Shown: positions 1 to 46,000 of the stretch, one piece after another
Position numbering within the stretch: the stretch's first letter is position 1
Layout: every line of letters starts with the position of its first letter
Origin: Candidatus Avilachnospira sp.
GTDB taxonomy: Bacteria > Bacillota > Clostridia > Oscillospirales > Oscillospiraceae
Length of the DNA: 64,000 bases
Direction: 5' to 3'
NCBI GenBank assembly: GCA_045579045.1
Contig: JAZNLL010000027.1
Span: forward strand, 4,724-68,723
Notes under the pieces: model-generated
What the model was told of the DNA's origin: nothing
Seen by the model: only the letters and a program-made list of their open reading frames with translations
Database searches by the model: none
Made by a program: the position numbers and the translations under genes

Positions 1-114
1 AGGGCCGAGATTGGTGTTATGTACAGCGATAATAGCCTTCAGACCGGCCTTCTCGTTGTTGACAAACAGAACTTTCTCGTGGCGGTAGTTGCTCATTTCA
101 GTCATTGCATTCAT
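1..114 (-). CDS. Leu/Val-type (Glu/Leu/Phe/Val family) amino-acid dehydrogenase, first 38 codons only (gene runs off the window)
   Basis: Not in ORF track because truncated. Reverse-strand ATG at 114 preceded by GGAGG. Translation MNAMTEMSNYRHEKVLFVNNEKAGLKAIIAVHNTNLGP resembles the conserved leucine dehydrogenase N-terminus (GLKAIIA-H-T-LGP). Lies 38 nt downstream of the OFOR gamma gene on the same strand. Confidence 0.65.
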   Translation of the reverse strand, partial: MNAMTEMSNYRHEKVLFVNNEKAGLKAIIAVHNTNLGP

Positions 115-152
115 AATATAAAACCTCCAAAATATAAATTGGGTTTTCGAAC

Positions 153-689
153 TTAGTGATATTCTTTACCCATCGTCAGAGCCTTCATGTTCAGCTCCAC
201 GAGAGCAGCCTTCTTGGGGGGAACCATGCTGCTGACAACAGCTTCTGTGCCTTCAAAGGACAGCTCGCTGCTATTCTGCAGCACATGACCCACAAGGATC
301 ATATTGGCAAGGGTGGCAATGCCTTCATCTTTTGCCATCTGGGTGGCAGGAATGTAGAACACTTCCACGTCGGTACGCTCAACCTTTTCGTTGATCAGGG
401 CACTGTCCACATAGATCTGACCGCCGGGAACAACGGCGTTCACATATTTCTGCAGAGAGGGCAGGTTCATTGCGATCAGCACATCGGGATTGGTGATAAT
501 GGGAGAACCCACAGGGGTCTCAGACAGGATCACGCTGCAGTTGGCGGTGCCGCCTCGCATCTCGGGACCGTAGGAAGGAAGCCAGGAGACCTGCAGATCT
601 TCCTTCAGACCCTTGTAGGCCAGAAACTTACCGGCAAACAGAACACCCTGTCCGCCGAAGCCGGCAATGAGGATTTGCGTCGTTTTCAT
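153..689 (-). CDS. 2-oxoacid:ferredoxin oxidoreductase, gamma subunit
   Basis: 178 aa. N-terminus ILIAGFGGQGVLFAGK and size are typical of the OFOR gamma subunit. Start overlaps the beta stop. Confidence 0.85.
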   Translation of the reverse strand: MKTTQILIAGFGGQGVLFAGKFLAYKGLKEDLQVSWLPSYGPEMRGGTANCSVILSETPVGSPIITNPDVLIAMNLPSLQKYVNAVVPGGQIYVDSALINEKVERTDVEVFYIPATQMAKDEGIATLANMILVGHVLQNSSELSFEGTEAVVSSMVPPKKAALVELNMKALTMGKEYH

Positions 690-1444
690 TACTTTTCCTC
701 CTTTGCAGCACTTCTGTCCTTATAGACACCGATGGGATAATAAGGCAGCATATCACTTTCCACCCACTCCAATGCCTTCTGGGGAGTCATGCCCCAGTTG
801 GTGGGACAGGCAGAGACCACTTCCACCAGAGAGAAGCCCTTGCCCTCGATCTGGTTCTGGAATGCCTTTTTGATGGCCTTCTTGGCATTGTTGACATTCT
901 TCACATTGTTGACTGCCACACGGGTCACATACTCAGGGCCTTCCAGAGTAGCCAGCATCTCGCAGACACGGATGGGCCAACCGCAGTGGTTGACGTCGCG
1001 TCCGTAGGGAGAAGTCTGGGTCACCTGACCGGGCAGGCTGGTGGGAGCCATCTGACCGCCGGTCATGCCGTAAATGGCATTGTTGACGAAGATGACGGTG
1101 ATATTTTCATTTCTGGCTGCGGAATGGACAGTTTCTGCCATACCGATGGAAGCCAGGTCGCCATCGCCCTGATAGGTAAAGACGATATTTTCGGGACGGC
1201 AGCGCTTGATGCCGGTGGCAACAGCGGGCGCTCTGCCGTGGGGTGCCTCGATCATATCGCAGGCGAAATAATCGTAAGCCATAACGGCACAGCCAACAGG
1301 TGCAACACCGATAGCCTTGCCTTCGATGCCCAGCTCATCGAGAGCTTCAGCGACCAGACGGTGGATAATACCGTGAGGGCAGCCGGGGCAGTAATGGAAG
1401 GGCGCATCCGTCAGGGACTTGGGTTTCTGAAAAACAACTGCCAT
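689..1444 (-). CDS. 2-oxoacid:ferredoxin oxidoreductase, beta (TPP-binding) subunit
   Basis: ORF 689..1492 trimmed to the internal ATG (MAVVFQKPK) at 1444, directly after the alpha stop at 1446. Cys-rich CPGCPHG and GDGD TPP-binding signature. Confidence 0.85.
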
Positions 1445-1445
1445 C

Positions 1446-2507
1446 TCAATACACTCCTTTCTGTGCGTTCCGCAGAGATTCGAGAACCTCATCGGGGCTG
1501 GGGATCATGCCGCCTGCACGGTTGCACAGACCAACGGGCTTCTTACAGTCGGTGGCCAGACGGACATCTTCGATCATCTGACCCATGCTCAGCTCCACGC
1601 TGACAAAGCCATTGACCTTCTCTGCTGCTGCAGCCAGAGCCTTCTTGGGGAAGGGCCACAGAGTGATGGGACGGATCAGACCGGCCTTGATGCCCTCTGC
1701 TCTTGCAGCAACAACTGCGTTCTTTGCCACGCGGGAAGCAATACCGAAGGCCACGACGCAGATTTCGGCATCTTCCATCATGTACTCTTCCCACATAGGC
1801 TCGTTCTCTTCCACAACGGCATACTTTTCAAACCGTTCGAAGTTCTTGGCTTCCAGCTCATCGGGCTTGAGGTACAGAGAGTTGACGATGTTGTGCTTTC
1901 TGGCGCACTCGGTACCGGTCAGAGCCCAGGGCTTTTCATAGGTATTGACTTCAGCATCCTCGAAGGAGATGGGCTCCATCATCTGACCGATGGTGCCGTC
2001 TGCCAAAATCATAGAAATCATGTTGTATTTATCAGCCAGATCAAAACCCTTGATGGTCAGACTGGCCATTTCCTGCACGGAGGCAGGTGCCAGAACGATC
2101 ATTCTGTAGTCGCCGTGACCGCCGCCCTTGGTGGCCTGGAAGTAATCGGACTGAGAAGGCTGGATGCCGCCCAGACCGGGGCCGCCGCGCTGGACATTGA
2201 CCACGAATGCGGGAACATCGGAACCGGCGATATAGCTGAGGCCTTCAGCCTTCAAAGAGATACCGGGGCTGGAGGAAGAGGTCATGACACGGGTGCCGGT
2301 AGCGGCTGCGCCGTAGACCATGTTGATAGATGCGATCTCACTTTCCGCCTGCAGGAACACACCGCCGATCTTGGGCAGCTTCTTTGCCATATAAGCAGCG
2401 ATCTCTGTCTGAGGGGTAATGGGATAGCCAAAGTAGTGACGGCAACCGGCACGGATGGCCGCTTCGGCGATGGCCTCGTTGCCTTTCATAAGTACGCGTT
2501 CTGCCAT
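1446..2507 (-). CDS. 2-oxoacid:ferredoxin oxidoreductase, alpha subunit
   Basis: 353 aa. [30 protein letters not shown] is the canonical POR/KOR/VOR alpha N-terminus. Confidence 0.85.
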
Positions 2508-2519
2508 AATTTGACCTCC

Positions 2520-2726
2520 TTACTTTTCCACGGTGATGATGCAGTCGGGGCACATGGTGGCACAGAAACCACAACCGACGCAGCTTTCTGCATCCTTCAT
2601 CACGGCCGGGGAATAACCCTTTTTGTTGATGGATCCGGTGTCGATGGTCAGACAGCCCTTCTTACAGGCGCTGACACACAGGCCGCAGCCTTTGCACAGA
2701 TCGGTGTTGAATGTGAGCTTTGGCAT
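2520..2726 (-). CDS. 2-oxoacid:ferredoxin oxidoreductase, delta subunit (2x[4Fe-4S] ferredoxin)
   Basis: 68 aa with two CxxCxxCxxxC(P) motifs (CKGCGLCVSAC, CVGCGFCATMCP). AGGAGG RBS upstream. Confidence 0.8.
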   Translation of the reverse strand: MPKLTFNTDLCKGCGLCVSACKKGCLTIDTGSINKKGYSPAVMKDAESCVGCGFCATMCPDCIITVEK

Positions 2727-2746
2727 TCTAATTCCTCCTAAACTGA

Positions 2747-3412
2747 TTACGTAGGTAAATCAAAATATTTTTCCTGCAGTTCCATGGAAAGCACAAGGCC
2801 GTCCAGTTTTCGGGCAACTTCTGCGGTTGCTGCATGCATCCACAGGGGCAGACCGGACAAACGGCAGAGGGAATTCAGTTTCTCTCCGGCACCGGTGACC
2901 GTTTCACAGGTGGTCTCCGGACCCAGATTGGTGTTGTGTACGATGCAGGTGAACTTCATTCCGCAGGCAGCTTCGATCTCACGCATCACTTCCAGGGCTT
3001 CTTCCGCCGTGGTTGTCAGAGGACGGCAGAAGTTGACCACAAAGGCCATGCGATAGTTATTCTCCTCCAGAATGAAGGGGGTAAATCTGCCAAGGGCATA
3101 GGCACCACGGTCATCGCCGCCGATGTCCATAACACCGTAGGTGCTTTGATCCTGCACCAAGCGGTAGCTCTCAGCAGGCAATGCCGGCAGATCCACATTG
3201 GTATTGGCAAACTTGGGAGAGATCAGATCCACACCGGCCTGCTCCAGCACCTTGGCGCTGTCCTTGGTGCGGAAATAGGGATTGACGATATCCAGATCGG
3301 CAATGCAGACCTTCTTCCCCTCCCCTGCCAGCTGCAGGGCATAGTTGACGGCAATGTTGGTCTTGCCGCTGCCATAATGACCTGCGAACAGAGTCAGTCG
3401 TTTGTGTTCCAT
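2747..3412 (-). CDS. P-loop NTPase (MinD/ParA/CooC-like), function unknown
   Basis: Walker A GHYGSGKTNIAV near the N-terminus and DLD Walker-B-like segment. ATG at 3412 (alternative GTG at 3418) abuts or overlaps the upstream synthetase stop (3415..3417). Confidence 0.6.
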   Translation of the reverse strand: MEHKRLTLFAGHYGSGKTNIAVNYALQLAGEGKKVCIADLDIVNPYFRTKDSAKVLEQAGVDLISPKFANTNVDLPALPAESYRLVQDQSTYGVMDIGGDDRGAYALGRFTPFILEENNYRMAFVVNFCRPLTTTAEEALEVMREIEAACGMKFTCIVHNTNLGPETTCETVTGAGEKLNSLCRLSGLPLWMHAATAEVARKLDGLVLSMELQEKYFDLPT

Positions 3413-3414
3413 GA

Positions 3415-5703
3415 TCACAGCTGCTTTCTGATAATTTTACCGCTGGTGGTCTTGGGAAGGCTTTCCCGGAACTCCACGATACGGGGATACTTATAAGGAG
3501 CGGTTCTGCGCTTGACGTAGTCCTGGATCTCCTTTTTCAGCTCGTCGGTACCCTTGAAGTCCTTCACCAGCACAATGCTGGCCTTGACCACCTGACCGCG
3601 AACCTCATCGGGAGCAGCGGAAACACCACATTCCAGAACATAAGGCAGTTCCATGATGACATTTTCGATTTCGAAGGGTCCGATGCGATAGCCGGAGGAC
3701 TTGATGACATCGTCCACACGACCCACATACCAGAAGAAGCCGTCCTCGTCCTTCCACGCCAGATCGCCGGTATGGTAGAAACCGTCGCGCCAGGTTTCTG
3801 CGGTGACCTCCGGGTTGCCCTCGTAGGCATAGCTGAGGCCGCAGGGCAGACCCTTGGAAATATCGATACAAATTTCGCCGTTTTCACCGACACCCACTTC
3901 GTTGCCATCGGCATCCAGCAGATGCACATCGTACAGGGGCACGGGCTTACCCATGGAGCCGATCTTGTGGCTGGAACCGGTCAGGTTACCGATGATCAGC
4001 GTGCTTTCGGACTGTCCGAAACCTTCCATGATCTCCAGACCTGTTGCCTTCTGGAACTGGCGGAAGACCTCCGGGTTCAGCGCTTCGCCGGCGATGGAGG
4101 CATGCTCGATGGAGCTGAGATCGAAGCGGCTCAGATCCTGCTTGATCAGCATGCGGTACATGGTAGGCGGTGCGCAGAAAGTAGTGATGCCGTACTTCTT
4201 GAACAGAGGCAAAATCTTCTCTGCATCGAACCGGTCAAAGTCATAGACAAAGATGGCAGCTTCGCACAGCCACTGGCCATAGAGCTTGCCCCACAGGGAC
4301 TTTGCCCAGCCTGTATCGGAGATGGTCAGGTGCAAGCCATCGGGATTGACCTGATGCCAATACTTGGCGGTGATAAAATGACCCAGCGGGTATTTATAGT
4401 TATGTGCAGCCATTTTGGGATAGCCGGAAGTGCCGGAAGTAAAGAACATCAGCATGGGATCGGAGCCGCAGGGGGCATCCTCCGCTCTTGCAAAATTGCT
4501 GTTGTACATGGTGTATTCTTCGTTAAAGTCGTGCCAGCCTTCCCGGCTGCCGCCGACCATGATCTTCAATGCCAGATCGGGACAAACTGCCGCAGCGGCA
4601 TCCACCTCGGAAGCAACATCGCCGTCAGCCGTACAGACAACGGCTTTTACCTTACCTGCCGTAAAGCGATAGGAGAAATCCTTTTCCTGCAGCTGATTGG
4701 TGGCAGGAATGACCACAGCACCCAGCTTGTGCAGACCCAGAATGGAGAACCAGAACTGATAGTGACGCTTCAGCACCAGCATGACGCGGTCGCCGCGCTT
4801 GATGCCCAGCGCCTTAAAGTAGTTGGCAGCTCTGGCGGATTCCTTTTTGATATCCTTGAAGGTGAAGCGGCGCTCGGTGCCATCCTCGCTCAGATGGAGC
4901 ATCGCCAGCTTTTCCGGCTTCCGCTCTGCCAGCGCATCCACCACATCAAAGGCAAAGTTGAACTTCTCTTCGTTCTTGAAATCAATGGCGGTCAGCTTGC
5001 CATCGGTTTCGGTGGGAATGATGAAGTCGCGGTAGATACGACCCTGATCGTCTTCCCGATGGGACTGACGGACAGGCTTGGCCTCTGTGGCAGCCTGCTC
5101 TTCCATTCTGGCTGCCTGATTGCGCAGAACAATGGCATAGAAGGAGCAGTCCTCACCGTCTACGGCGATCATACCGTGAGGAGTGGAGGAATCGTAGTAA
5201 ATACAGTCACCGGCACGGAGGACTTCCGTATGGCCGCCGATCTGGATGCGCATGCTGCCACTGATGACGATATCACATTCCTGACCTTCATGGGTCACCA
5301 GTTCGATATCTTCATACTCGGCACCGGGACGGTAGTTCAGTTCCATATACAGGGGCAGTGCAATACGGTTGCGGAAGTCTGCTGCCAGGTTGTAGCCCAC
5401 CATATGGTGTGCTTCTTCGATGCGCTGGCCCATGCCCTTTCGAGTCAGAGCATAAGAACGAAGCTTGGGGCTTCGGCCTTCCAGCAGGTCGCTCATATCA
5501 ACGCCAAAAGAAAGGCTGCAATGATACAGGAATGCAATGCTGAGGTTCTGGTTGCCGCTTTCGCACTGCAAGTATTCTTCCACGCTCACGCCGACGCGGG
5601 AAGCCATTTCCTCCACGGTAATACCGGTGATCTCACGAAGTTCGCGAATTCTATCGGCAGTTTCCTTTATTTTATAAGTCATGCCGGTCATGTTCTGTTC
5701 CAT
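3415..5703 (-). CDS. XRE-HTH + cupin + AMP-dependent acyl-CoA synthetase fusion (paralog 1)
   Basis: ORF 3415..5739 trimmed to ATG 5703 (MEQNMTG, GAGGTG RBS). Residues ~10-70 form an HTH_3-like segment (IRELREITGITVEEMASRVGVSVEEY). Residues ~120-200 are cupin-like (GQECDIVISGSMRIQIGGHTEVLRAGDCIYYDSSTPHG). The remaining ~540 aa are an AMP-binding enzyme (FFTSGTSGYPK, YHTGD, SGKIIR). Confidence 0.8.
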   Translation of the reverse strand: MEQNMTGMTYKIKETADRIRELREITGITVEEMASRVGVSVEEYLQCESGNQNLSIAFLYHCSLSFGVDMSDLLEGRSPKLRSYALTRKGMGQRIEEAHHMVGYNLAADFRNRIALPLYMELNYRPGAEYEDIELVTHEGQECDIVISGSMRIQIGGHTEVLRAGDCIYYDSSTPHGMIAVDGEDCSFYAIVLRNQAARMEEQAATEAKPVRQSHREDDQGRIYRDFIIPTETDGKLTAIDFKNEEKFNFAFDVVDALAERKPEKLAMLHLSEDGTERRFTFKDIKKESARAANYFKALGIKRGDRVMLVLKRHYQFWFSILGLHKLGAVVIPATNQLQEKDFSYRFTAGKVKAVVCTADGDVASEVDAAAAVCPDLALKIMVGGSREGWHDFNEEYTMYNSNFARAEDAPCGSDPMLMFFTSGTSGYPKMAAHNYKYPLGHFITAKYWHQVNPDGLHLTISDTGWAKSLWGKLYGQWLCEAAIFVYDFDRFDAEKILPLFKKYGITTFCAPPTMYRMLIKQDLSRFDLSSIEHASIAGEALNPEVFRQFQKATGLEIMEGFGQSESTLIIGNLTGSSHKIGSMGKPVPLYDVHLLDADGNEVGVGENGEICIDISKGLPCGLSYAYEGNPEVTAETWRDGFYHTGDLAWKDEDGFFWYVGRVDDVIKSSGYRIGPFEIENVIMELPYVLECGVSAAPDEVRGQVVKASIVLVKDFKGTDELKKEIQDYVKRRTAPYKYPRIVEFRESLPKTTSGKIIRKQL

Positions 5704-5721
5704 AATACACCTCAATAAAGG

Positions 5722-5996
5722 CAAAAAAGCCCGTCTCAAAGATTGATTCCTTGAGACGAGCTGTGATTCTTAGCCCGCGGTACCACTCAAATTGCATTTG
5801 CCTCACGGCAAATACCACTCATTGGGTGCCAACACACCCTAAGCACTGACGCAGCTGACGCGTGGAGGTTCTACGGCAAACGCTTTCTTCCTCCCGGCTC
5901 CGGAGCGACAAACTGCAGTTCCTACCATGGCTTGCACCAACCGCCAATTCTCTGAGGCAGAACTTCCGCTGTTTTTCTCCATCCTCGCTTTTGGAT
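5722..5996 (-). promoter_or_regulatory. T-box leader, specifier read as GUC (Val), with its promoter just upstream
   Basis: Promoter: -35 TTGACA (6031..6026), 17 nt, -10 TATGAT (6008..6003). AG bulge AGAGAA plus distal loop GGUUGGUGCAA. T-box core AAUUUGAGUGGUACCGCGGG (5793..5774). Terminator CUCGUCUCAA...UUGAGACGGG + U6 (5760..5723). Specifier GUC at 5909..5907 in the register GAUGGAG...GUC-G-CUCC-GGAG. UGGU bulge implies an A73 tRNA. Confidence 0.85.
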
Positions 5997-6060
5997 GTAG
6001 GAATCATACCACTATTTCAGAAAAATGTCAACACTTAATTCGTTACTGTGCTAAAGTTTA

Positions 6061-8328
6061 TTAGAGCTTATTGCGCTGGATCTTACCGGAGATCGTCTTG
6101 GGCAATTCCGTACGGAACTCCACGATACGGGGATACTTGTAGGGAGCCGTTCTGGTCTTGACGTAGTTCTGGATCTCCTTCTTCATTTCTTCGGTACCTT
6201 CGGTACCGGGAACCAGCACGATACAGGCCTTGACGACCTGACCGCGAACCTCATCGGGGGCAGCACAGACACCGCATTCCAGAACGTAGGGCAGTTCCAT
6301 GATGGTGCTTCCGATCTCGAAGGGCCCGATGCGGTAGCCGGAGGACTTGATGACATCGTCGGCACGTCCGACATACCAGTAGTAGCCATCTTCATCCCGC
6401 CAGGCCACATCGCCCGTATGGTACATACCGTCATGCCAGACATCGTTGGTGGCTTCTTCGTTGCGGTAGTAGCCCAGGAAGACACCGCAGGTGGGCTTGG
6501 GATCGGTACGGATGACGATCTCGCCGTTGATACCATCTTCCACAGGGTTGCCGTCGGCATCCACAATGTCGATGCCGTAGCCGGGAACCGGCTTGCCCAT
6601 GGCACCGGGCTTGATGATGGCGCCATAGAGGTTTGCAATACCCAGAGTCATTTCCGTCTGGCCAAAGCCTTCGTGGATCCGCAGACCCGTCGCCTTTTCG
6701 AACTGATAGAAGACCTCCGGATTCAGTGCCTCACCGGCAGTGGTGGCATGGTGGATGGAGCTGAGATCGTAACCGCTGAGATCCTGCTTGATCAGCATGC
6801 GGTACATAGTGGGAGGTGCGCAGAAGGTGGTGATGTTGTACTTTGCGAACATGGGCAGAATTTTCTCTGCATCAAAGCGGTCAAAGTCGTAGGTAAACAC
6901 AGCACCTTCGCAGAGCCACTGGCCGTAGAGCTTGCCCCACAGTGCCTTGCCCCAGCCGGTTTCGGAGATAGTAAAATGCAGACCGTCACGCTCACACAGA
7001 TGCCAGTACTTGGCAGTGACATAGTGACCCAGGGCATACTTATAGGAATGGGTTGCCATCTTGGGATAGCCGGTGGTACCGGAAGTGAACAGCATCAGCA
7101 TGGGATCGCTGCCGCAGGGAGCATCTTCCTCCCGGACATAGCGACGGGAGAAGAGGCTGTACTCCTGATCGAAATCATGCCAACCTTCTGCCTTGCCGCC
7201 GACCATGATCTTCGTCATGCTCATGCCGGCAGTCTTTTCTGCCAGATCGATCTGACCGGCCGTATTGCCGTCAGCCGTGCAGAGAACTGCACTCACATCT
7301 GCAGCCTGGAAGCGGTACACGAAATCCTTTTCCATCAGCTGATTGGTAGCAGGGATGGCGATGGCACCCAGCTTGTGCAGACCCAGAATGGCGAACCAGA
7401 ACTGGTAATGGCGCTTCAGCACCAGCATGACGCGGTCGCCGCGCTTGATGCCCAGAGACTTGAAGTAGTTGGCGCTCTGGCTGGAAGCATCCTTGAAATC
7501 CTTAAAGGTGAAGCGGCGCTCGGTCATGTCATTGGCGACATGGATCATGGCGAGCTTCTCAGGCTCACGGCGAGCGATGGCATCCACTGTATCAAATGCG
7601 AAGTTATAAGTATCTTCGTCGGAGAAGGTAATATTCTGCAGCGCACCGTTTTCGTCTTCCTGTGCATTGACAAACTTGTCGCACAGCAGCTTCTGCTGAG
7701 ACTTGCCCTTGCGGCTCAAACCGGTATACAGAGGCTGGTCGGTGGTATCAGAAGCCATAATCATGGACAGGAACACGCAGTCCTGACCGTCAATGGCCAG
7801 CTGACCGTGAGGGGTGGAGGACTTGAAGAAGATGCTGTCGCCTTCACGCAGAGTCTCTTCATGGTCCCCGACCTTGATCCGCATAGCACCCTTGATGACC
7901 AGATTGTATTCCTGACCGGCATGGGTAACGGTATGGATGGGCTTATTCTGCAGTTCCTCGGAATATTTGTAGGTAACCCAGTAAGGAGTTGCCAGCTTCT
8001 TGCGGAACATGGGAGCCACGTCCTGAATGATAATGCCATCCTCACTGGCAGTCACCAGACCCTTGCCGCGGCGAGTCACTGTATAGCCGGACAGCTTGGC
8101 GCTGTGGCCTTCCAGCAGAACAGTAATCTCAACACCGAAAACCTTTGCGCACTTATGCAGGAACGTAAAAGGCAGATCCACCGTGCCGGTTTCGTACTGA
8201 CGGTAGCTTTCTTCCGAAACCTCGGTCAGCTCTGCCATCTTCTGAGTGCTGTAACCCAAAATGTCACGCATACCCTGAATACGTGCGGCGATATCCATCA
8301 GCTGTGTTGTGGGATTCATGTTACTCAT
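6061..8328 (-). CDS. XRE-HTH + cupin + AMP-dependent acyl-CoA synthetase fusion (paralog 2)
   Basis: ORF 6061..8505 trimmed to ATG 8328 (MSNMNPTT); the upstream part of the ORF is the T-box leader. Same three-part architecture as 3415..5703 and collinear with it (LFTSGTTGYPK, YHTGD, SGKIQR). Confidence 0.8.
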   Translation of the reverse strand: MSNMNPTTQLMDIAARIQGMRDILGYSTQKMAELTEVSEESYRQYETGTVDLPFTFLHKCAKVFGVEITVLLEGHSAKLSGYTVTRRGKGLVTASEDGIIIQDVAPMFRKKLATPYWVTYKYSEELQNKPIHTVTHAGQEYNLVIKGAMRIKVGDHEETLREGDSIFFKSSTPHGQLAIDGQDCVFLSMIMASDTTDQPLYTGLSRKGKSQQKLLCDKFVNAQEDENGALQNITFSDEDTYNFAFDTVDAIARREPEKLAMIHVANDMTERRFTFKDFKDASSQSANYFKSLGIKRGDRVMLVLKRHYQFWFAILGLHKLGAIAIPATNQLMEKDFVYRFQAADVSAVLCTADGNTAGQIDLAEKTAGMSMTKIMVGGKAEGWHDFDQEYSLFSRRYVREEDAPCGSDPMLMLFTSGTTGYPKMATHSYKYALGHYVTAKYWHLCERDGLHFTISETGWGKALWGKLYGQWLCEGAVFTYDFDRFDAEKILPMFAKYNITTFCAPPTMYRMLIKQDLSGYDLSSIHHATTAGEALNPEVFYQFEKATGLRIHEGFGQTEMTLGIANLYGAIIKPGAMGKPVPGYGIDIVDADGNPVEDGINGEIVIRTDPKPTCGVFLGYYRNEEATNDVWHDGMYHTGDVAWRDEDGYYWYVGRADDVIKSSGYRIGPFEIGSTIMELPYVLECGVCAAPDEVRGQVVKACIVLVPGTEGTEEMKKEIQNYVKTRTAPYKYPRIVEFRTELPKTISGKIQRNKL

Positions 8329-8349
8329 TACTTTCAACCCTTTCTGGAA

Positions 8350-8612
8350 AATAAAAAAACGCCTCAAGAATTTCTTCTTGAGACGAGTCATTCTATACCC
8401 GCGGTACCACTCAAATTGCAGCCGTAGCTGCCACTTCAGACTCCAATAAGTCCTATCCCTTAACGCGGGCAAACGGGAAAGCCTGGCAGCATCTGCTCGG
8501 CTCACCGGCTCGGAAGTGATGGGCTTTCGGGCAACAAACCGTCGACTCGCACCAACCGTCGACTCTCTGAAGATTCATACACCTAGCCGTCTTCGTCACA
8601 GCCTTTTTCGAT
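8350..8612 (-). promoter_or_regulatory. T-box leader, specifier read as AUC (Ile), with its promoter just upstream
   Basis: Promoter: -35 TTGACA (8649..8644), 17 nt, -10 TAGATT (8626..8621). K-turn/base GACGAAG, AG bulge AGAGAG, distal loop GGUUGGUGCGA. Specifier AUC at 8520..8518 in the register AUC-A-CUUC-CGAG, identical to the thrS leader. T-box core (8417..8398). Terminator hairpin + U7 (8388..8353). Confidence 0.85.
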
Positions 8613-8719
8613 ATGCCCATAATCTACCACATTTCTTTTTCCTTGTCAATTCTTTTTTTGTTTAAAGCGAAAGAATTTTTCTTCTTGACAAATTGCAAGG
8701 TTTGTGATTAAATGCTTTC

Positions 8720-8991
8720 ATACACATTAGAAAAAACGTTGACGGAAAATCCTTTCTGTTCAGAAGCTTCAGAGAGCCGGTGGCTGCTGCGAACCGGTGC
8801 GGAGAACAGATCGGTCTGCTTCCTGAGTTGGCTCTGTGAACCCGTTTCGGACGGTCAGTAATGGAGCCCGGCCTCCTCCGTTACCGGGATAGGACTTACT
8901 GGAGTCCGATGAGAGACCCCGTTCCGGGGTAATCAGGGTGGTACCGCGAATAATTTTCGTCCCTGAGGTCTTGTGACCTCAGGGATTTTTT
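8720..8991 (+). promoter_or_regulatory. T-box leader, specifier probably CUG (Leu), with its promoter just upstream
   Basis: Promoter: -35 TTGACA (8685..8690), 17 nt, -10 TTAAAT (8708..8713). Base GACGGAA, AG bulge AGAGAG (8771..8776). F-box CCGUUA (8878..8883). T-box core AAUCAGGGUGGUACCGCGAA (8931..8950). Terminator CCCUGAGGUC...GACCUCAGGG + U6 (8961..8991). Specifier CUG 8816..8818 in the register CUG-C-UUCC-UGAG; the base after the codon is C rather than the usual purine, so confidence in the codon is lower. Confidence 0.8.
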
Positions 8992-9013
8992 CATTCCAAA
9001 GGAGCTGTATATT

Positions 9014-10420
9014 ATGAAAATGATCAAACTGTCCGATGTCACCATGAAGCAGGTTGTCGACGGTTTCAGCCTGTCTTTCAAAGAGAAGATCGAACTGGCA
9101 AAGCTGCTGGATAAATTGGGAGTCTGTGTCATCGAACTGGAAGGCATCGAAAACGCCCGCATTGACAGTCTGCGAATCAAGTCCATCGCTTCGTCTGTGA
9201 CTAACAGCATTGTTGCCGTTCCCGTTCAGTTGACGGCAGACAGCCCCGCTCAGGTTTGGTCTGCTCTGCAGCAGGCAAAGCTTCCCCGCCTGCAGGTCTG
9301 CGGTGCCGTCAGCGCCGTTCAGATGGAGTATCTGTTCCACAAAAAGCAGGATGCCATGCAGAAAGCCATCGTGGACACCATCACCGCCTGCAAGGCCTTG
9401 TGTGCCGATGTGGAGTTCCTGGCCGACGATGCCACCCGTGCAGATCCCGCGTTCCTCGCCTCCACTTTGAAAGCCGCTATCGCTGCCGGTGCGACAACCG
9501 TCACCGTCTGTGATACTGCCGGTTCCATGCTGCCTGCCGAGTTCGCTCAGTTCATCAAGGAACTGTATGAGGCCGTTCCCGAAATGAAGAATGTCAATGT
9601 GGGTGTCAGCTGCTGTAACACCCTGTCCATGGCTGATGCCTGTGCCATCGCCGCTGTCGGTGAAGGTGTCACCGAACTGAAATCTGCCGCATATCCCATC
9701 GATGTTGCCAGCCTTGCCAATCTGGCAAAACTGCTGTCCGCCAGAGGGGATTGCTTCCATGTAAGCACTTCCGTTCAGATGACCCAGCTGAGCCGCATCA
9801 TGGACCGTGTGTATCAGATCTGCCAGACCGGTAGCACAAAGGGTTCTGCAATGACCGCAGCCCAGACAGATTCCGATATTTATCTGACCGCCCACGACGA
9901 CGTTGCAGCCGTGACCAAGGTTGCCGAACAGTTGGGTTACGATCTTTCTGAAGACGACAGCATGAAGGTCTATGAAGCCTTCAAGCAGATCGCCGCCAAG
10001 AAAGAACAGGTCAGCTCCAAGGAACTGGATGCCATTATCGCCTCTGCCGCATTGCAGGTACCTCCCACCTACAAGCTGGATACCTTCGTGATTACCTCCG
10101 GCAACACCATTTCTTCCACCGCTCATATCAAGCTGATGAAGAACGGTCAGCCCATGGAAGGTGTTTCCATCGGAGACGGCCCCATCGATGCCGCCTTTGT
10201 TGCCATCGAAAACATCACCGGCTGCCATTACGAGCTGGATGACTTCCAGCTGCAGGCTGTGACCGAGGGCCGCAGCGCCATGGGTCAGACCGTGGTGAAA
10301 CTCCGCAGCGGCGGCAAGGTCTATTCCGGCAAGGGCATTTCTACGGACATTGTGGCAGCCGGTATCCATGCCTACCTGAGTGCTCTGAACAAGATCGTTT
10401 ATGAGGAGGAAGAAGCATGA
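9014..10420 (+). CDS. LeuA/CimA-family (HMGL-like TIM barrel + LeuA regulatory domain) protein with degenerate active site
   Basis: 468 aa, collinear with 2-isopropylmalate synthase. DTTLRDGEQ is replaced by DVTMKQVVD and H-x-H-D-D by SCCNT. The C-terminal GDGPIDAAFVAIENI...GISTDIVAAGIHAYLSALN is a well-preserved LeuA_dimer regulatory domain. Confidence 0.75.
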   Translation: MKMIKLSDVTMKQVVDGFSLSFKEKIELAKLLDKLGVCVIELEGIENARIDSLRIKSIASSVTNSIVAVPVQLTADSPAQVWSALQQAKLPRLQVCGAVSAVQMEYLFHKKQDAMQKAIVDTITACKALCADVEFLADDATRADPAFLASTLKAAIAAGATTVTVCDTAGSMLPAEFAQFIKELYEAVPEMKNVNVGVSCCNTLSMADACAIAAVGEGVTELKSAAYPIDVASLANLAKLLSARGDCFHVSTSVQMTQLSRIMDRVYQICQTGSTKGSAMTAAQTDSDIYLTAHDDVAAVTKVAEQLGYDLSEDDSMKVYEAFKQIAAKKEQVSSKELDAIIASAALQVPPTYKLDTFVITSGNTISSTAHIKLMKNGQPMEGVSIGDGPIDAAFVAIENITGCHYELDDFQLQAVTEGRSAMGQTVVKLRSGGKVYSGKGISTDIVAAGIHAYLSALNKIVYEEEEA

Positions 10421-13004: not shown

Positions 13005-13718
13005 ATGAAATGGAAAGAATTTTTTGCCGGTGTTAAAGCCGGCATGCCGGTATGCATCGGATATTTCTCCGTCAGCTTCGGTTTCGGTGCCATGGCTGTG
13101 GCACAGGGTCTGACCATTTGGCAGGCCATTCTGATCTCTGCCTCCAATCTGACCAGCGCAGGTCAGTTCGCAGGTCTGACGGTCATTTCCGCCGGTGCAG
13201 CCATTGTAGAAATGATACTGACCCAGCTGGTCATCAACAGTCGCTATGCACTGATGAGTCTTGCTCTGGGCCCTCGGTTCGGCCCCAATGTAGGAACAGG
13301 AAAGCGGCTTTTTGCCGCCTTCTTCAACACAGACGAGGTCTTTGCTCTGGGCATGTCCAGAGGTAAAAACCTGACAACCGCCTTCTTTGTCGGTGCCGGT
13401 GTGATCTCTGCCGTTGGCTGGACAAGCGGTACCGCCATGGGAGCCATCGCCGGCTCTCTGCTGCCGGAATCTATTCGTATGGCACTGGGTGTCATGCTCT
13501 ACGGTATGTTCATCGCCATTGTCGTTCCACAGGCAAAAGAAGAAAAGCCGCTTTTGGCTTCCGTGGTGCTGGCATTGGTCTTTAGCTGCCTGTTTGCATG
13601 GCTTCCCCTTCTGAAGCAGGTCTCTGCCGGTCTGGCAATCGTCATCTGCACGGTTGCAGCAGCTTCCGTGTGTGCCCTGCTGTTCCCCGTGAAGGAAGAA
13701 GAGGAGGCTGCACCATGA
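13005..13718 (+). CDS. azlC: AzlC-family branched-chain amino acid transport protein
   Basis: 237 aa polytopic protein. N-terminus FFAGVKAGMPVCIGYFSVSFGFGAMA...SNLTSAGQFAG is typical of AzlC. Confidence 0.8.
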   Translation: MKWKEFFAGVKAGMPVCIGYFSVSFGFGAMAVAQGLTIWQAILISASNLTSAGQFAGLTVISAGAAIVEMILTQLVINSRYALMSLALGPRFGPNVGTGKRLFAAFFNTDEVFALGMSRGKNLTTAFFVGAGVISAVGWTSGTAMGAIAGSLLPESIRMALGVMLYGMFIAIVVPQAKEEKPLLASVVLALVFSCLFAWLPLLKQVSAGLAIVICTVAAASVCALLFPVKEEEEAAP

Positions 13719-14023
13719 GTATTTATGTTTATATTCTTGTCATGGCAGTCACGACGTATCTGATCCGGGCACTGCCTCTTACCCTGCTGAAGAAGCCCAT
13801 TCAAAACCGGTTTTTGAAATCATTTTTGCACTATGTTCCTACCGCCTGTCTGACCGCAATGACCTTTCCCGCCATCCTTTCCGCCACAGAAAACTGGATC
13901 AGTGGTGCCATCGGTCTGGCCGTCGGTGTTCTGCTGGCATTGAAAAAGAAAAGCCTGATCGTGGTGGCCGTCGCAAGCTGCGCAGCCGTGTTCCTCACGG
14001 AACAGATCATCAAATATATATAA
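13715..14023 (+). CDS. azlD: AzlD-family branched-chain amino acid transport protein
   Basis: ORF 13598..14023 trimmed to ATG 13715 (MSIYVYILVMAVTTYLIRALP), overlapping the azlC stop (ATGA). ~100 aa hydrophobic partner of AzlC. Confidence 0.75.
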   Translation: MSIYVYILVMAVTTYLIRALPLTLLKKPIQNRFLKSFLHYVPTACLTAMTFPAILSATENWISGAIGLAVGVLLALKKKSLIVVAVASCAAVFLTEQIIKYI

Positions 14024-14025
14024 TA

Positions 14026-14055
14026 AATATCCCCCCGCATAGCGGGGGGATATTT
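14026..14055. terminator. Bidirectional intrinsic terminator between convergent azlD and the ACT-MBL gene
   Basis: AATATCCCCCCGC-ATA-GCGGGGGGATATT palindrome flanked by A/T runs. Confidence 0.75.
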
Positions 14056-15511
14056 ATTTTACAGAATAGTCCGCTGGTGATCCATGGGAGCCGAAAATCT
14101 TCCAATCTCCAACGCCCAATCTTCGCATAATGGCTTTTCTTTCATCACTGCAGAGCTTGGGGTCTGTATCTACAGAAGTCATCAGGATCGGTGCATACTG
14201 ATTGTACGCAGCCTGTTCCGAAGTCAGCCCGTGCGTGTTGATATAGACATCACCTGTAAACGCAATATTGTTATGATAGTCGATCAGAACGATTTCGCCC
14301 GGCAAATGGCCCCCTTTTCCTTCGTACACTTCAAAATGCAAGTCACCGAAGTCAAAAAAACCGATCTGTGTCAGCGGCTCCCGCAGATCCGGGATGTTTT
14401 GCCACGGCGTTTTCAGCTTTTCGGGGTCGATAGCCTTGTAGGATGTAAGGGTTTTACAAATGCTGATATACGGTTTATGCAGCGGATTCTGCTCCCGGAA
14501 ACCGTTGTCTCCGTAGAATTCATTCTGCAGACTCAACGCAGATCTGCAGCTGACGATCACTTCATCAAATTCGTTCATCAGACCACAGTGATCCACATCT
14601 GCATGGGTTAGGAGCAAGCACTTGGGAAGCCTGTTAAATTCGGGAACAACCGTCTGCATTACCGAAAGCATTTCATCTCTGTAGCAGGCATAGCCGCTGT
14701 CAATGCAAAGTATCTTCCCAAAACTCTTGATGATCGCAGTATTGCTTCCGCAAGCAGGTTCGATCAGAATGATTTCTGTATTCGGTGTGATGGTATGTGT
14801 TGTGATTCTGGGAACAAATCGGTCACTCTTAGACTTCGCCAGCAGTTCGGCAAATTTGCTGATACTGTCAAAAGTCCGGTAAGGCGATAACCCCTGTTCA
14901 TCCAGCGTCTGCATCGCAAGATTGGAGGATACCAAAAGGCACTGCTTCTGTTCATCACTGAGATCTAGCAGCTGCGAAAGACCGCGTACGAAGGCACTGT
15001 AGAAAATGCTGTTGTCGTAAGCTCGTTCGGAACTGTTGTAATCAATCGCTCTGACTTTACACAGCCGTTCCGCCTGCTCAATAAAAGCCGTGATTCGATC
15101 GGGATCTTCCACATGCAGACCCATTTTGAAATGCTGATAATCCGTCCCGTTTTCCTGAGAATTGATGTAGGAGATATTGAAATTGAATGTGTTAATCAGT
15201 TCAAGGACATCCGTAACACTGCCGGGGACATCTCTCAGCCAGAACTCAAGCAAAACAATGCTGGAATTTCCGGCATTATCCTGAAGATATCCGATTTTTT
15301 CCAGTTCCAGATCCGCTTTTAGTATTTGCTCCTCTGTGCCGTCCACATCCAAAAACAGCATATGAGAGTCCACCGCTTTGTCATAGCTGACACGGGTAAT
15401 ATTTATGCCAAGATCCGCAAAGCATTTGCTGGCCTTCAGAAATGCTCCGATATGGTTTGGCATCGAGGTTGCATAGGTTTTTTTCACAGTAATCACCGCC
15501 AATTGCATCAT
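14054..15511 (-). CDS. Tandem ACT-like domains fused to an MBL-fold metallo-hydrolase
   Basis: 485 aa. Two ACT-like beta-alpha-beta-beta-alpha-beta segments in the first ~160 aa. C-terminal MBL signature LLLTHADVDHCG, later GGHLPGE, FTGD, GSHG. Confidence 0.6.
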   Translation of the reverse strand: MMQLAVITVKKTYATSMPNHIGAFLKASKCFADLGINITRVSYDKAVDSHMLFLDVDGTEEQILKADLELEKIGYLQDNAGNSSIVLLEFWLRDVPGSVTDVLELINTFNFNISYINSQENGTDYQHFKMGLHVEDPDRITAFIEQAERLCKVRAIDYNSSERAYDNSIFYSAFVRGLSQLLDLSDEQKQCLLVSSNLAMQTLDEQGLSPYRTFDSISKFAELLAKSKSDRFVPRITTHTITPNTEIILIEPACGSNTAIIKSFGKILCIDSGYACYRDEMLSVMQTVVPEFNRLPKCLLLTHADVDHCGLMNEFDEVIVSCRSALSLQNEFYGDNGFREQNPLHKPYISICKTLTSYKAIDPEKLKTPWQNIPDLREPLTQIGFFDFGDLHFEVYEGKGGHLPGEIVLIDYHNNIAFTGDVYINTHGLTSEQAAYNQYAPILMTSVDTDPKLCSDERKAIMRRLGVGDWKIFGSHGSPADYSVK

Positions 15512-39092: not shown

Positions 39093-39261
39093 CCATTCCT
39101 ATATTTTTAACCTCACACAGTATACTATTTTATGCATAAAAATACTGCCCAAAGTTTCGTTATGTTGCACAGATAATTTGTGCAGAATTTTGTAATTTTC
39201 CCCAAGATTTTTAGAGTTGCTTTATTGACAGAAATGCACTTTTCAGTTAAGATAAGTGCAA

Positions 39262-39362
39262 GGACTTCTGTAACTGACGGAAATGTGGAGCACCACAGGG
39301 GAGCAGAAGTTGATATTTGCCGACCGTCTGGGCTGTTCTGAGGAGATTTCCGTCAGAACTGC
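39262..39362 (+). promoter_or_regulatory. ZTP (pfl-motif) riboswitch with terminator expression platform
   Basis: P1 CUUCUG (39265..39270) / CAGAAG (39304..39309). ACUGACGGAAAUGUGGAGCACCACAGGGGAGC core. 3' subdomain CCGACCGUCUGGGC (39319..39333) whose CCGUC can pair with GACGG. GUUCUGA...UCAGAAC hairpin + U-rich tail before purO. Confidence 0.8.
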
Positions 39363-39396: not shown

Positions 39397-40116
39397 ATGG
39401 ACATTTACAGCATCCGCAACGCCGCAGAATATCTCAGCGGCAACGAGTACCCCGGCCGTGGCGTCCTGCTGGGCAAAAGCCCCGAAGGCAAGGCAGTGTT
39501 TGCCTACTTTATCATGGGACGCAGTGAAAACAGCCGCAACCGTATCTTTACGGGAGAAGGCAAAGATGTGATCATCCACCCCTTCGATGCCAGCAAGGTC
39601 GAAGACCCCTCTCTCATTATCTATGCTCCTGTCCGCGTGGTTGGCAAGGAAGTCATCGTCACCAACGGCGATCAGACTGACACGGTCCGTGACCATCTGG
39701 CAGACGGCGGTAACTTCTACACCGCTCTGCAGACCCGCTGCTTTGAGCCTGACGACCCCAACTGGACCCCCAGAATCAGCGGTATTCTCCATCTGGGTGC
39801 TGAAGATTTTGGCTATGAGCTGAGTATCCTCAAGAGCCGTGATGCCGAAGGCGAAGCCTGCAGCCGCTACTACTACACCTACACCGCCAAGGCCGGTCTG
39901 GGTCATCTGATCCACACCTACGAGGAAAACGGCAACCCCATTCCCACCTTCCAGGGTGAGCCTCGCCGCATGGCTGTTCCCAGCGATATCGACGCCTTTA
40001 CCAAGGAGATCTGGGAAAACCTCAATGAAAGCAACAAGATTTCTCTCTATGTCCGTTACATGGATCCCGTCACCGGCGAATGTGAGAGCCGTATGCTGAA
40101 CAAGCACTTGCTGTAA
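39397..40116 (+). CDS. purO: IMP cyclohydrolase, PurO-like (archaeal type)
   Basis: YPGRGVLLGKSPEGKAVFAYFIMGRSENSRNRIF and size (239 aa) are typical of the PurO family. Confidence 0.7.
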   Translation: MDIYSIRNAAEYLSGNEYPGRGVLLGKSPEGKAVFAYFIMGRSENSRNRIFTGEGKDVIIHPFDASKVEDPSLIIYAPVRVVGKEVIVTNGDQTDTVRDHLADGGNFYTALQTRCFEPDDPNWTPRISGILHLGAEDFGYELSILKSRDAEGEACSRYYYTYTAKAGLGHLIHTYEENGNPIPTFQGEPRRMAVPSDIDAFTKEIWENLNESNKISLYVRYMDPVTGECESRMLNKHLL

Positions 40117-40128
40117 GGAGGTAAGAAC

Positions 40129-41313
40129 ATGAAAGAATTTGAACTGAAGTATGGCTGCAACCCCAATCAGAAGTCTGCAAAACTCTATATGCACGACGGC
40201 AGCGAGCTGCCCTTCACCATCCTCAACGGCCGTCCCGGCTACATCAACTTTATGGATGCACTGAACTCCTGGCAGCTGGTCAAGGAGCTGAAAGAAGCCA
40301 CCGGCATGGTGGCCGCCACCTCTTTCAAGCATGTCTCCCCCACCTCCGCCGCTGTGGGCAAGCCTCTGGACGCCGATCTGAAGAAGGCCTGCTTTGTGGA
40401 CGACATCCCCGATCTGGACAGCAATCCTCTGGCCTGCGCTTATGCCCGTGCCCGTGGTACCGACCGTATGTGCTCCTTTGGCGACTGGGTGGCTCTGTCC
40501 GACACCTGCGATGCGCTGACTGCATCCCTCATTGCCCGTGAAGTTTCCGACGGCGTTATCGCCCCCGGTTACACCGACGAAGCTCTGGAGATTCTCAAGA
40601 CCAAGCGCAAGGGCAGCTACAATGTGGTGGCCATTGATCCCAACTATGTTCCCGCCGAAGCCGAAAACAAGCAGGTCTACGGCATCACCTTCCAGCAGGG
40701 CCGCAACAACTTTAAGATCGGCGAGGAACTGCTGCAGAACATTGTCACTGATAACAAAGAACTGCCTGAAAGCGCCAAGATCGATCTGATCGTTGCCCTC
40801 ATTACCTTGAAGTACACCCAGTCCAACTCCGTGTGCTATGCAGTGGACGGTCAGGCCATCGGTGTCGGTGCCGGTCAGCAGAGCCGTATCCACTGCACCA
40901 GACTGGCAGGCTCCAAGGCCGATACCTGGTTCCTCCGTCAGCATCCCAAGACCCTGGCACTGCCCTTCCGGGATGATCTGGGTCGTCCCAACCGGGACAA
41001 TGTCATCGACGGCTACATCAACGGCAACGAAGAGGATGTCTGCGCCGACGGTATCTGGCAGAACTATTTTACCAAGCAGCCTGAGCGTCTGACCGACGAG
41101 GACAAGAAGGAATGGCTGGCCTCCCGTCAGAATGTGGCTCTGGGCTCCGATGCCTTCTTCCCCTTCTCTGACAACATCAAGCGTGCGGCTGCTTCCGGCG
41201 TCAAGTACATTGCTGAACCCGGCGGCTCCATCCGCGATGATCTGGTCATCGAGGAGTGCAACAACCGGGGCATCACCATGGCCTTCACCGGCATGAGACT
41301 GTTCCATCACTAA
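40129..41313 (+). CDS. purH: AICAR formyltransferase (PurH transformylase domain only)
   Basis: LKYGCNPNQ, SFKHVSP, VIAPGY, GAGQQSRI, SDAFFPF, GGSIRD motifs. No MGS/cyclohydrolase domain. Confidence 0.85.
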   Translation: MKEFELKYGCNPNQKSAKLYMHDGSELPFTILNGRPGYINFMDALNSWQLVKELKEATGMVAATSFKHVSPTSAAVGKPLDADLKKACFVDDIPDLDSNPLACAYARARGTDRMCSFGDWVALSDTCDALTASLIAREVSDGVIAPGYTDEALEILKTKRKGSYNVVAIDPNYVPAEAENKQVYGITFQQGRNNFKIGEELLQNIVTDNKELPESAKIDLIVALITLKYTQSNSVCYAVDGQAIGVGAGQQSRIHCTRLAGSKADTWFLRQHPKTLALPFRDDLGRPNRDNVIDGYINGNEEDVCADGIWQNYFTKQPERLTDEDKKEWLASRQNVALGSDAFFPFSDNIKRAAASGVKYIAEPGGSIRDDLVIEECNNRGITMAFTGMRLFHH

Positions 41314-45814: not shown

Positions 45815-46000
45815 AATAAAAAGCCCCGTGCAAACTCTGCCGGGACAAACATTTCCCCAAAAGGGAACTTGCTCTGTCCTTTTGCCTGAGAGATTCGGCT
45901 TTCGCCTTGCACCTTCGGCACCCATTTTCGGGATTCTCCAGAGTTTCCTATTCCGGCAGTCACCTTGGCTTCTGCCGAAAATCAAAGGATTTTTTCAATT
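45815..46000 (-). promoter_or_regulatory. Singlet glycine riboswitch leader with intrinsic terminator, upstream of glyA
   Basis: Promoter: -35 TTGACA (46036..46031), 17 nt, -10 TATAAT (46013..46008). Aptamer CUCUGGAGAA...UGCCGAAGGUGCAA...CUCUCAGGCAAAAGGACAGAG (45942..45871). Upstream hairpin GGCAG...CUGCC. Terminator GUCCCGGCA...UGCACGGGGC + U5AU4 (45845..45812). Confidence 0.8.

Follow-up and report, generated by a model that had tools for sequence, protein, structure and literature searches.

A 64,000-nucleotide stretch of a Candidatus Avilachnospira sp. genome (NCBI GenBank assembly GCA_045579045.1, contig JAZNLL010000027.1, positions 4,724 to 68,723; hereafter the window) carries at its start, on the minus strand, an operon with a promoter, a T-box leader with a valine (Val) specifier codon, a terminator, and seven translationally coupled genes. 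These encode an acyl-CoA synthetase fused to helix-turn-helix (HTH) and cupin domains, a P-loop NTPase, the delta, alpha, beta, and gamma subunits of a 2-oxoacid:ferredoxin oxidoreductase (OFOR), and a leucine/valine-dehydrogenase-type enzyme. Sequence and gene context suggest that the operon is quite probably a biosynthetic salvage system, which would produce valine from exogenous isobutyrate. An earlier note on this DNA had read the gene order as a route from acid to acyl-CoA, 2-oxoacid, and amino acid. This reading is supported: the three steps are encoded together under T-box regulation, and an aminating enzyme, leucine dehydrogenase (LeuDH) or IlvE, is found in or next to the operon in 58 of 60 evaluable loci.

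In the proposed mechanism, uncharged tRNA-Val would pair with the GUC specifier and the T-box bulge and would stabilise the antiterminator, and transcription would then pass the leader terminator. The synthetase domain would spend two ATP equivalents on the conversion of isobutyrate to isobutyryl-CoA. The four-subunit OFOR would use reduced ferredoxin and CO2 to convert isobutyryl-CoA to 2-oxoisovalerate, which the LeuDH-type enzyme would aminate to valine with NAD(P)H and ammonia; in most other species the amination would be catalyzed by IlvE instead. The same OFOR and aminating enzyme would be expected to serve a neighbouring isoleucine (Ile)-gated synthetase paralogue (2-methylbutyrate to isoleucine), and probably also a leucine (Leu)-gated ligase fusion (isovalerate to leucine).

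Organization of the Val-gated operon

Domain and Rfam scans bore out the gene order given in the earlier note, from the T-box (GUC) through the synthetase, the P-loop gene, and the OFOR genes to the dehydrogenase (Table 1). The synthetase and P-loop genes share a 4-nt GTGA overlap, or are separated by a 2-nt gap if the ATG start is used. The other junctions, in order, are gaps of 20, 12, and 1 nt, a 1-nt TAATG overlap, and a 38-nt gap, so that no gap exceeds 38 nt. A clear AGGAGG-type ribosome-binding site precedes every gene start of the operon except that of the P-loop gene. The beta subunit was assigned an internal ATG start, giving 251 aa, as called in the relatives. Terminator prediction on the minus strand of positions 1-9100 gave two strong terminators only, those of the two T-boxes; none was predicted inside the operon, from 5722 to 1 downstream of the leader. 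The earlier observation on this operon was thus correct in all particulars.

Related loci were collected in a scan of one genome per GTDB species, which gave at least 600 stretches, of which at least 595 were confirmed; the locus counts reported here come from the best 80. The loci belong to metagenome-assembled genomes (MAGs) of Faecousia, Acutalibacteraceae, Oscillospiraceae, and Christensenellaceae from the ruminant and human gut. The order Ile-type synthetase, Val-type synthetase, P-loop gene, delta, alpha, beta, and gamma is found in about 60 of them (Oscillospirales and Christensenellales).

T-box leaders and specifier codons

In the T-box family, an uncharged tRNA pairs with the specifier and the T-box bulge and stabilises the antiterminator. 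Three such leaders lie in this region, each with a near-consensus promoter upstream and a strong intrinsic terminator that overlaps the antiterminator sequence. A permissive scan placed Rfam RF00230 at 5749-5994 (-), with 82.5 bits (E = 1.4e-17); the neighbouring T-boxes at 8376-8608 (-) and 8730-8967 (+) pass the gathering threshold, with 102.5 and 107.1 bits. The specifiers aligned to the model are GUC (Val, followed by G), AUC (Ile), and CUG (Leu), respectively. Default annotation would overlook the regulator of the Val operon, though this leader type is conserved in 71 species.

Stem I of the Val leader has a GA/K-turn base, and in its specifier loop the codon sits immediately 5' to the lower helix; the AGAGA motif and the distal loop GGUGNRA are also present. 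The Rfam alignment places the T-box sequence UGGUACCGCG in this leader together with its antiterminator pairing. The terminator, a 15-bp hairpin followed by a T-run, shares CUCGUCUCAAGG with the antiterminator, and the two structures are mutually exclusive. The fold of the leader has a z-score of -2.3. A Stem I covariance model was built in this analysis from 49 aligned Stem I sequences, and the search of all loci with it gave 172 hits, of which 150 were aligned. The Val leader matches this model with 69.2 bits (E = 4e-13), and the consensus fold shows compensatory changes in 11 of 14 pairs.

The leaders of the Val-type synthetases carry Val codons in 71 of 71 cases (GUA 54, GUC 17), which confirms the Val specifier named in the earlier note. 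The codon is AUC in all 50 leaders of the Ile-type synthetases, and a Leu codon in all 28 leaders of a LeuA-like gene (CUG 20, CUC 7, CUU 1). Specifier variation is restricted to the third codon position; the codon register is therefore fixed, and this is the pattern expected of a genuine codon under selection. A T-box survey found that the specifier agreed with gene function wherever the function was known (PMC2494555). From these features we infer tRNA-Val-dependent antitermination of the leader.

A TTGACA/TATAAT-like promoter pair was seen in nearly all of about 40 leaders inspected, from all three classes, and in the Val leaders it follows directly after the upstream gene. The covariance search of the loci found no Stem I directly upstream of the P-loop, OFOR, or aminating genes. 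One locus (L073:21065-21166, +) has an additional Leu-type (CUC) Stem I with no mapped cluster gene downstream.

The amination step

The window ends inside the dehydrogenase gene, and exact-sequence look-ups of the gamma subunit and of the 100%-identical P-loop protein P0121 gave no record. The full-length enzyme was read from two relatives whose synthetases are 93-95% identical, L001 (ENA) and L003 (NCBI GCA_045589035.1), in which the cluster lies on longer contigs. The 38-codon fragment in the window is identical at 37 of 38 positions to the N-terminus of the 343-aa dehydrogenase of both relatives. At full length the enzyme is of the LeuDH type and is not a glutamate dehydrogenase, with E = 3e-102 to the LeuDH of PDB 6acf, compared with 1e-25 for the best glutamate dehydrogenase. 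Both catalytic lysines align (MSHKNA and GGGKGV). Past the dehydrogenase the gene content differs between L001 and L003, which indicates that the operon ends there.

The amination genes were surveyed in 63 loci with the block from synthetase to gamma, of which 60 were evaluable; in the other 3 the contig ends too early to tell. Immediately after gamma, IlvE is found in 36 loci (NF009897, 494 bits vs 307) and LeuDH in 16. IlvE lies between the synthetase and the P-loop gene in 4 further loci (L067, L068, L070, and L078, each a different species) and slightly further downstream in 2, and neither enzyme was seen in 2. The same slot is thus filled by two unrelated enzymes, which have in common only the conversion of branched 2-oxoacids to branched-chain amino acids (BCAAs). 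This is the strongest single argument that the product of the operon would be the amino acid. In another locus (L076:8787-11024) two genes are inserted between the P-loop and delta genes, and their N-termini resemble, by eye, methionine-pathway enzymes.

The acyl-CoA synthetases

The Val-gated synthetase consists of an XRE-type HTH (HTH_19, about residues 16-76), a Cupin_2 domain (about 95-195), and an AMP-forming short/medium-chain ligase (about 245-762). Both ligase families are matched over their full length (AMP-binding, PF00501, 2e-59; AMP-binding_C, PF13193, 6e-20), and more than 8000 homologues share the HTH-cupin-ligase architecture. The closest solved structure is 3ETC (MacsMa), with 646 bits and about 58% identity over residues 14-529 of the 531 queried; the next match has 367 bits. 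The preferred substrate of MacsMa is 2-methylbutyrate (PMC10455477), and the activation step proposed in the earlier note agrees well with an AMP-forming relative of this enzyme. The best NCBIfam model is MbcS (NF047394), with 431.6 bits, which is far below the equivalog cut-off of 850 and is not an equivalog-level match. MbcS is the branched-acid ligase of S. aureus (PMC10026030).

The Val- and Ile-gated paralogues of the window are 59% identical. Among about 100 sequences, nine positions differ between the two classes while being conserved to at least 90% inside each. Eight of the nine lie in the HTH-cupin module (positions 22, 47, 60, 79, 98, 101, 118, and 134). The only one in the ligase domain is A467 in the pocket region, in the motif GW[A/G]K, where the Ile-gated enzymes and MacsMa have G. 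The residue after GW probably corresponds to a known acyl-pocket position of acetyl-CoA synthetase, and a larger side chain in the enzymes for the smaller acid would fit this. The Val T-box and the A467/G difference suggest that the Val-gated synthetase may activate isobutyrate.

The similarity to MbcS leads to another explanation, in which the operon would supply branched acyl-CoA primers for membrane fatty acids, as MbcS does. The synthetase would then scavenge branched acids at low BCAA supply, while the OFOR and LeuDH or IlvE would be oxidative or merely co-located. The S. aureus mbcS gene is induced under BCAA limitation (bioRxiv 10.64898/2026.03.28.714991), and the Kor2 OFOR complex of B. 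fragilis is essential and is rescued by lipids (PMC11304471). For primer supply, however, the synthetase alone would suffice, yet the OFOR and an aminating enzyme are co-transcribed with it in the 58 loci counted above. If the OFOR and the aminating enzyme ran oxidatively when valine is short, the cell would break down the very amino acid that it lacks; moreover, T-boxes sense tRNA charging, that is, the amino-acid end product. Primer supply as the function of the operon is thus considered unlikely, although it is compatible with valine synthesis, and isobutyryl-CoA could feed both.

The OFOR and the direction of the pathway

The OFOR subunit set is complete, and the delta, alpha, beta, and gamma domains include the thiamine pyrophosphate (TPP) and Fe-S motifs. 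The alpha subunit passes the cut-off of the NCBIfam 'VorB' subfamily NF005507 (545.5 bits, cut-off 399). It fails the cut-offs of the KorA/OorA-type models (PRK08659, 326/411; PRK09627, 250/579) and those of the archaeal models for 2-oxoisovalerate (VOR, 74/646) and pyruvate (POR, 91/550) enzymes, and the beta subunit fails PRK09628 (123/364). The nearest PDB entries of alpha, all of them distant, are 1yd7, 8ys5, and 6n2n; one is a 2-keto acid OFOR from Pyrococcus, and the other two act on 2-oxoglutarate. With these failed cut-offs and distant matches, a firm clustering of alpha and beta with 2-oxoglutarate-specific KorAB was not seen. The VOR-type class assigned in the earlier note agrees with the 'VorB' subfamily match of alpha, but an orthology to archaeal VOR did not hold. 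The flanking genes make a branched acyl-CoA and consume a branched 2-oxoacid, and exactly one reaction is left between them. On this context the OFOR would be specific for branched 2-oxoacids and would work in the carboxylating direction.

Several points weigh against the valine-salvage reading. All of it is derived from sequence and context. The window itself shows only 38 codons of the dehydrogenase, and the Val T-box scores under the Rfam gathering score (82.5 vs 93 bits), so that it was not reported by the default scan. Of the three amino-acid-specific T-boxes, only one precedes the shared OFOR and aminating genes, an awkward arrangement for starvation of a single amino acid. The OFOR class was taken from NCBIfam cut-offs and PDB matches, and no experiment behind the NCBIfam name 'VorB' was traced. 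The enzyme and the archaeal VOR known from biochemistry are not orthologues, and the nearest solved structures of both alpha and beta are 2-oxoglutarate:ferredoxin oxidoreductases (8ys5 and 6n2n). These structures might indicate that the OFOR is a 2-oxoglutarate or pyruvate synthase that delivers amino-group acceptors or carbon skeletons and is connected with the branched-acid ligase through regulatory co-location only. However, the structural matches are distant (104 bits for beta), and alpha belongs by its cut-offs to the 'VorB' subfamily and not to KorA/OorA. The single missing reaction between the flanking genes is also the carboxylation of a branched acyl-CoA, and LeuDH needs no glutamate. 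This second explanation is therefore regarded as very unlikely.

All three enzyme classes are reversible in principle, and LeuDH together with a VOR-type OFOR constitutes the classical oxidative BCAA fermentation route of Clostridia. A catabolic, Stickland-type operon might be considered on these grounds, in which valine would be deaminated by LeuDH and the product decarboxylated by the OFOR to isobutyryl-CoA, with release of isobutyrate. A degradative operon, however, would need the reverse of induction by uncharged tRNA-Val. The CoA step is catalyzed by an AMP-forming ligase, which conserves no energy, and the operon contains neither a phosphotransacylase/kinase pair nor an ADP-forming synthetase. 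The genes are ordered in the synthetic direction of the pathway. Matching T-boxes on three precursor-specific ligases would be sensible only for uptake. A catabolic role thus appears extremely unlikely, and the induction by uncharged tRNA, the non-energy-conserving ligase, and the gene order argue for the biosynthetic direction of the valine pathway.

The P-loop NTPase and the HTH-cupin module

The P-loop protein contains the motifs GHYGSGKTN, DLDIVNPYFR, DIGGDDRGAxALGR, and NNxNLGxET. Pfam and NCBIfam gave weak N-terminal matches to ParA/CbiA/ApbC only, with no curated family assignment. Its gene is as conserved in position as the OFOR subunit genes, and is present in the operon in about 75 loci, nearly all of those that reach this position. 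The AlphaFold2 (AF2) model has a confidence (pLDDT) of 82, and Foldseek matched it to the signal recognition particle (SRP)-GTPase NG domain and to ATPase-type HypB (TM-score 0.5-0.6). A NifH-like or Mrp/ApbC-like Fe-S protein was considered and rejected, since no Cys is conserved in 75 orthologues and the Foldseek matches show a generic SIMIBI fold. As a tentative assignment, the SIMIBI NTPase would most likely be an assembly or maturation factor of the OFOR.

The nearest non-fused relatives of the HTH-cupin module are stand-alone XRE-cupin proteins of about 185 aa; many of these are homologous to it over its full length, with 30-40% identity. Its AF2 model is confident for the HTH half only, and the cupin half has a pLDDT below 50. 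No conserved operator palindrome for the HTH was evident by eye upstream of the leaders in about 40 of 149 upstream regions. Again tentatively, the module would most likely have a ligand-sensing regulatory role. A rather doubtful extension is that the HTH-cupin sensor of each synthetase forms, with the T-box, two amino-acid-specific control layers, while the NTPase assists OFOR assembly or drives the carboxylation. In such a two-layer system, the ligand of the HTH-cupin module could be the cognate amino acid, 2-oxoacid, or acid, and the module could throttle the enzyme allosterically and/or bind DNA.

Neighbouring Ile- and Leu-gated units

The Ile-gated unit lies upstream of the Val operon on the same strand, and the Leu-gated unit is divergent from it (Table 1). 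The earlier note had suggested that read-through from the Ile-gated gene may matter. No terminator is predicted between the stop codon at 6061 and the Val promoter at 6031, which agrees with the suggestion; in the window, however, the terminator of the Val T-box intervenes. Of the 65 species that have both paralogues, 53 carry the internal Val T-box and 11-12 lack it; in the latter the Val-type synthetase and the OFOR follow 21-270 nt after the Ile-gated gene. The loci without it are L007, L011, L018, L019, L021, L022, L024, L025, L028, L048, and L076, and in these the Ile T-box alone seems to control the entire block.

Table 1. Features of the Val-gated operon and of the adjoining Ile- and Leu-gated units. 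Positions are those of the window; functions of the synthetases are predicted.
Feature	Position	Strand	Remarks
Sigma-70-type promoter of the Val unit	6003..6031	-	TTGACA-17 nt-TATGAT + extended TG; 11/12 consensus matches
Val T-box leader	5728..5994	-	Stem I 5894-5990; specifier GUC 5909-5907; terminator hairpin 5762-5728
HTH-cupin::AMP-forming acyl-CoA synthetase, 762 aa, predicted isobutyrate-CoA ligase	3415..5703	-	Pfam, NCBIfam, PDB 3ETC
P-loop NTPase, SIMIBI class, 221-223 aa	2747..3418	-	Walker A GHYGSGKT; between synthetase and OFOR
OFOR delta subunit, 68 aa	2520..2726	-	2x[4Fe-4S] ferredoxin-like (Fer4 x2)
OFOR alpha subunit, 353 aa	1446..2507	-	POR_N + PFOR_II; NF005507 'VorB' subfamily
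OFOR beta subunit, 251 aa	689..1444	-	TPP_enzyme_C; TPP-binding GDGD...NN; CPGC cluster motif
OFOR gamma subunit, 178 aa	153..689	-	POR
Leucine/valine-dehydrogenase-type gene, first 38 codons	1..114	-	Window ends inside the gene
Ile-gated paralogue, HTH-cupin::acyl-CoA synthetase, predicted 2-methylbutyrate-CoA ligase	6061..8328	-	
Ile T-box leader	8360..8608	-	AUC; terminator 8385-8360; promoter 8649-8621
Leu T-box leader	8730..8986	+	CUG; with terminator; divergent from the Ile unit
LeuA-like protein, 468 aa	9014-10420	+	Leu-gated unit; under all isopropylmalate synthase (IPMS) cut-offs
TIM-barrel (AP_endonuc_2, xylose-isomerase-like)::acyl-CoA ligase fusion (PRK12583-like), 837 aa	10417-12930	+	Leu-gated unit
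AzlC	13005-13718	+	Leu-gated unit
AzlD-like protein	~13715-14023	+	Leu-gated unit

In the Leu-gated unit, the stop codon of the LeuA-like gene overlaps the start of the TIM-barrel::ligase gene, and the first terminator is at 14022-14058. This gene pair adjoins the Val/Ile cluster in about 45 of the best 80 loci. The unit, which is starvation-gated, carries an 'exporter' (AzlC/AzlD). The earlier note had proposed that the route would bypass the whole ilv/leu pathway. A scan of the rest of the 64-kb window for ilv/leu genes found none, with the caveat that the Leu-T-box-gated LeuA-like gene adjoins the Val/Ile cluster.

An ACT-domain protein adjoins the cluster both in the window (14054-15511, -) and in the relative L001 (L001:5505-6953), where the orthologue has a weak metallo-beta-lactamase match; the ACT domain suggests amino-acid binding. 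Two riboswitches were found further along the window. A glycine riboswitch aptamer (45864-45951, -) lies directly upstream of a serine hydroxymethyltransferase gene (44528-45784, -), and not of a glycine-cleavage operon. A ZMP/ZTP riboswitch (39260-39340, +) lies upstream of IMP-cyclohydrolase-like and AICARFT genes (39397-41313, +), which is an ordinary arrangement.

Significance and comparison with known systems

Among the classical growth factors of fibre-degrading anaerobes in rumen and gut are the branched-chain volatile fatty acids ("isoacids"), which also serve as feed additives. To our knowledge, the genes for isoacid assimilation in Firmicutes are poorly defined. The cluster gives a concrete and widespread gene set (at least 595 stretches from GTDB species representatives) for this long-known use of isoacids. 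The T-box specifiers predict the acid of each ligase, which opens the old physiology to genetic and biochemical tests. Metabolic modelling and the prediction of auxotrophies in Oscillospirales, where at present such genomes would be scored by their ilv/leu genes alone, would be improved. The OFOR might also be a natural example of an enzyme committed to CO2-fixing C-C bond formation.

The carboxylation of isovalerate and its amination to leucine are textbook rumen microbiology (PMC7356843). The operon resembles this rumen route, and that of methanogens, in its proposed activation, ferredoxin-dependent carboxylation, and amination, and also in habitat, as MAGs from rumen or gut make up most of the related genomes. 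Between the 1960s and the 1980s, Allison and co-workers reportedly described how rumen bacteria form BCAAs from branched short-chain acids by reductive carboxylation, and assimilation of isovalerate and 2-methylbutyrate is known from Methanococcus. Those routes are known physiologically and biochemically, whereas the system described here is a dedicated T-box-gated operon with HTH-cupin-fused synthetases and an associated NTPase. Full-text literature searches gave no paper that connects T-boxes with acyl-CoA synthetases or OFORs. Neither these searches nor two T-box surveys brought up an operon in which a T-box gates synthetase, OFOR, and aminase genes, the fused synthetases, or the NTPase. 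As far as these searches reach, the chemistry is already known from physiology, and the operon, the fused synthetases, and the NTPase are apparently undescribed.

Among individual enzymes, MacsMa of Methanosarcina acetivorans (3ETC) is similar to the synthetase over the whole ligase domain, and the Trp of its KYW motif is conserved. However, MacsMa lacks the HTH-cupin module and is not known to have a T-box, and the Val-gated enzymes have Ala where it has Gly in GW[G/A]K. Among curated families, MbcS of S. aureus gives the highest score; its substrates include isobutyrate and 2-methylbutyrate, and it is up-regulated when BCAAs are limiting. Unlike the synthetases of the cluster, it feeds lipid primers, is controlled by CodY, and has neither an HTH-cupin fusion nor a link to an OFOR. 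The archaeal VOR and the bacterial KorAB/OorDABC are likewise four-subunit TPP/[4Fe-4S] OFOR enzymes with reversible chemistry; the OFOR of the operon is an orthologue of neither, and belongs to the separate NF005507 subfamily.

The closest parallels in regulation are the Bacillus ilv-leu operon, with its Leu T-box, and the ileS, valS, and leuS genes, where a transcription-attenuation T-box also has a specifier that matches the end product. In the present cluster, by contrast, three T-boxes of different specificity gate three precursor-specific ligases, which would feed one shared enzyme pair. The units are also partly in series, as no terminator closes the Ile unit ahead of the promoter and T-box of the Val unit.

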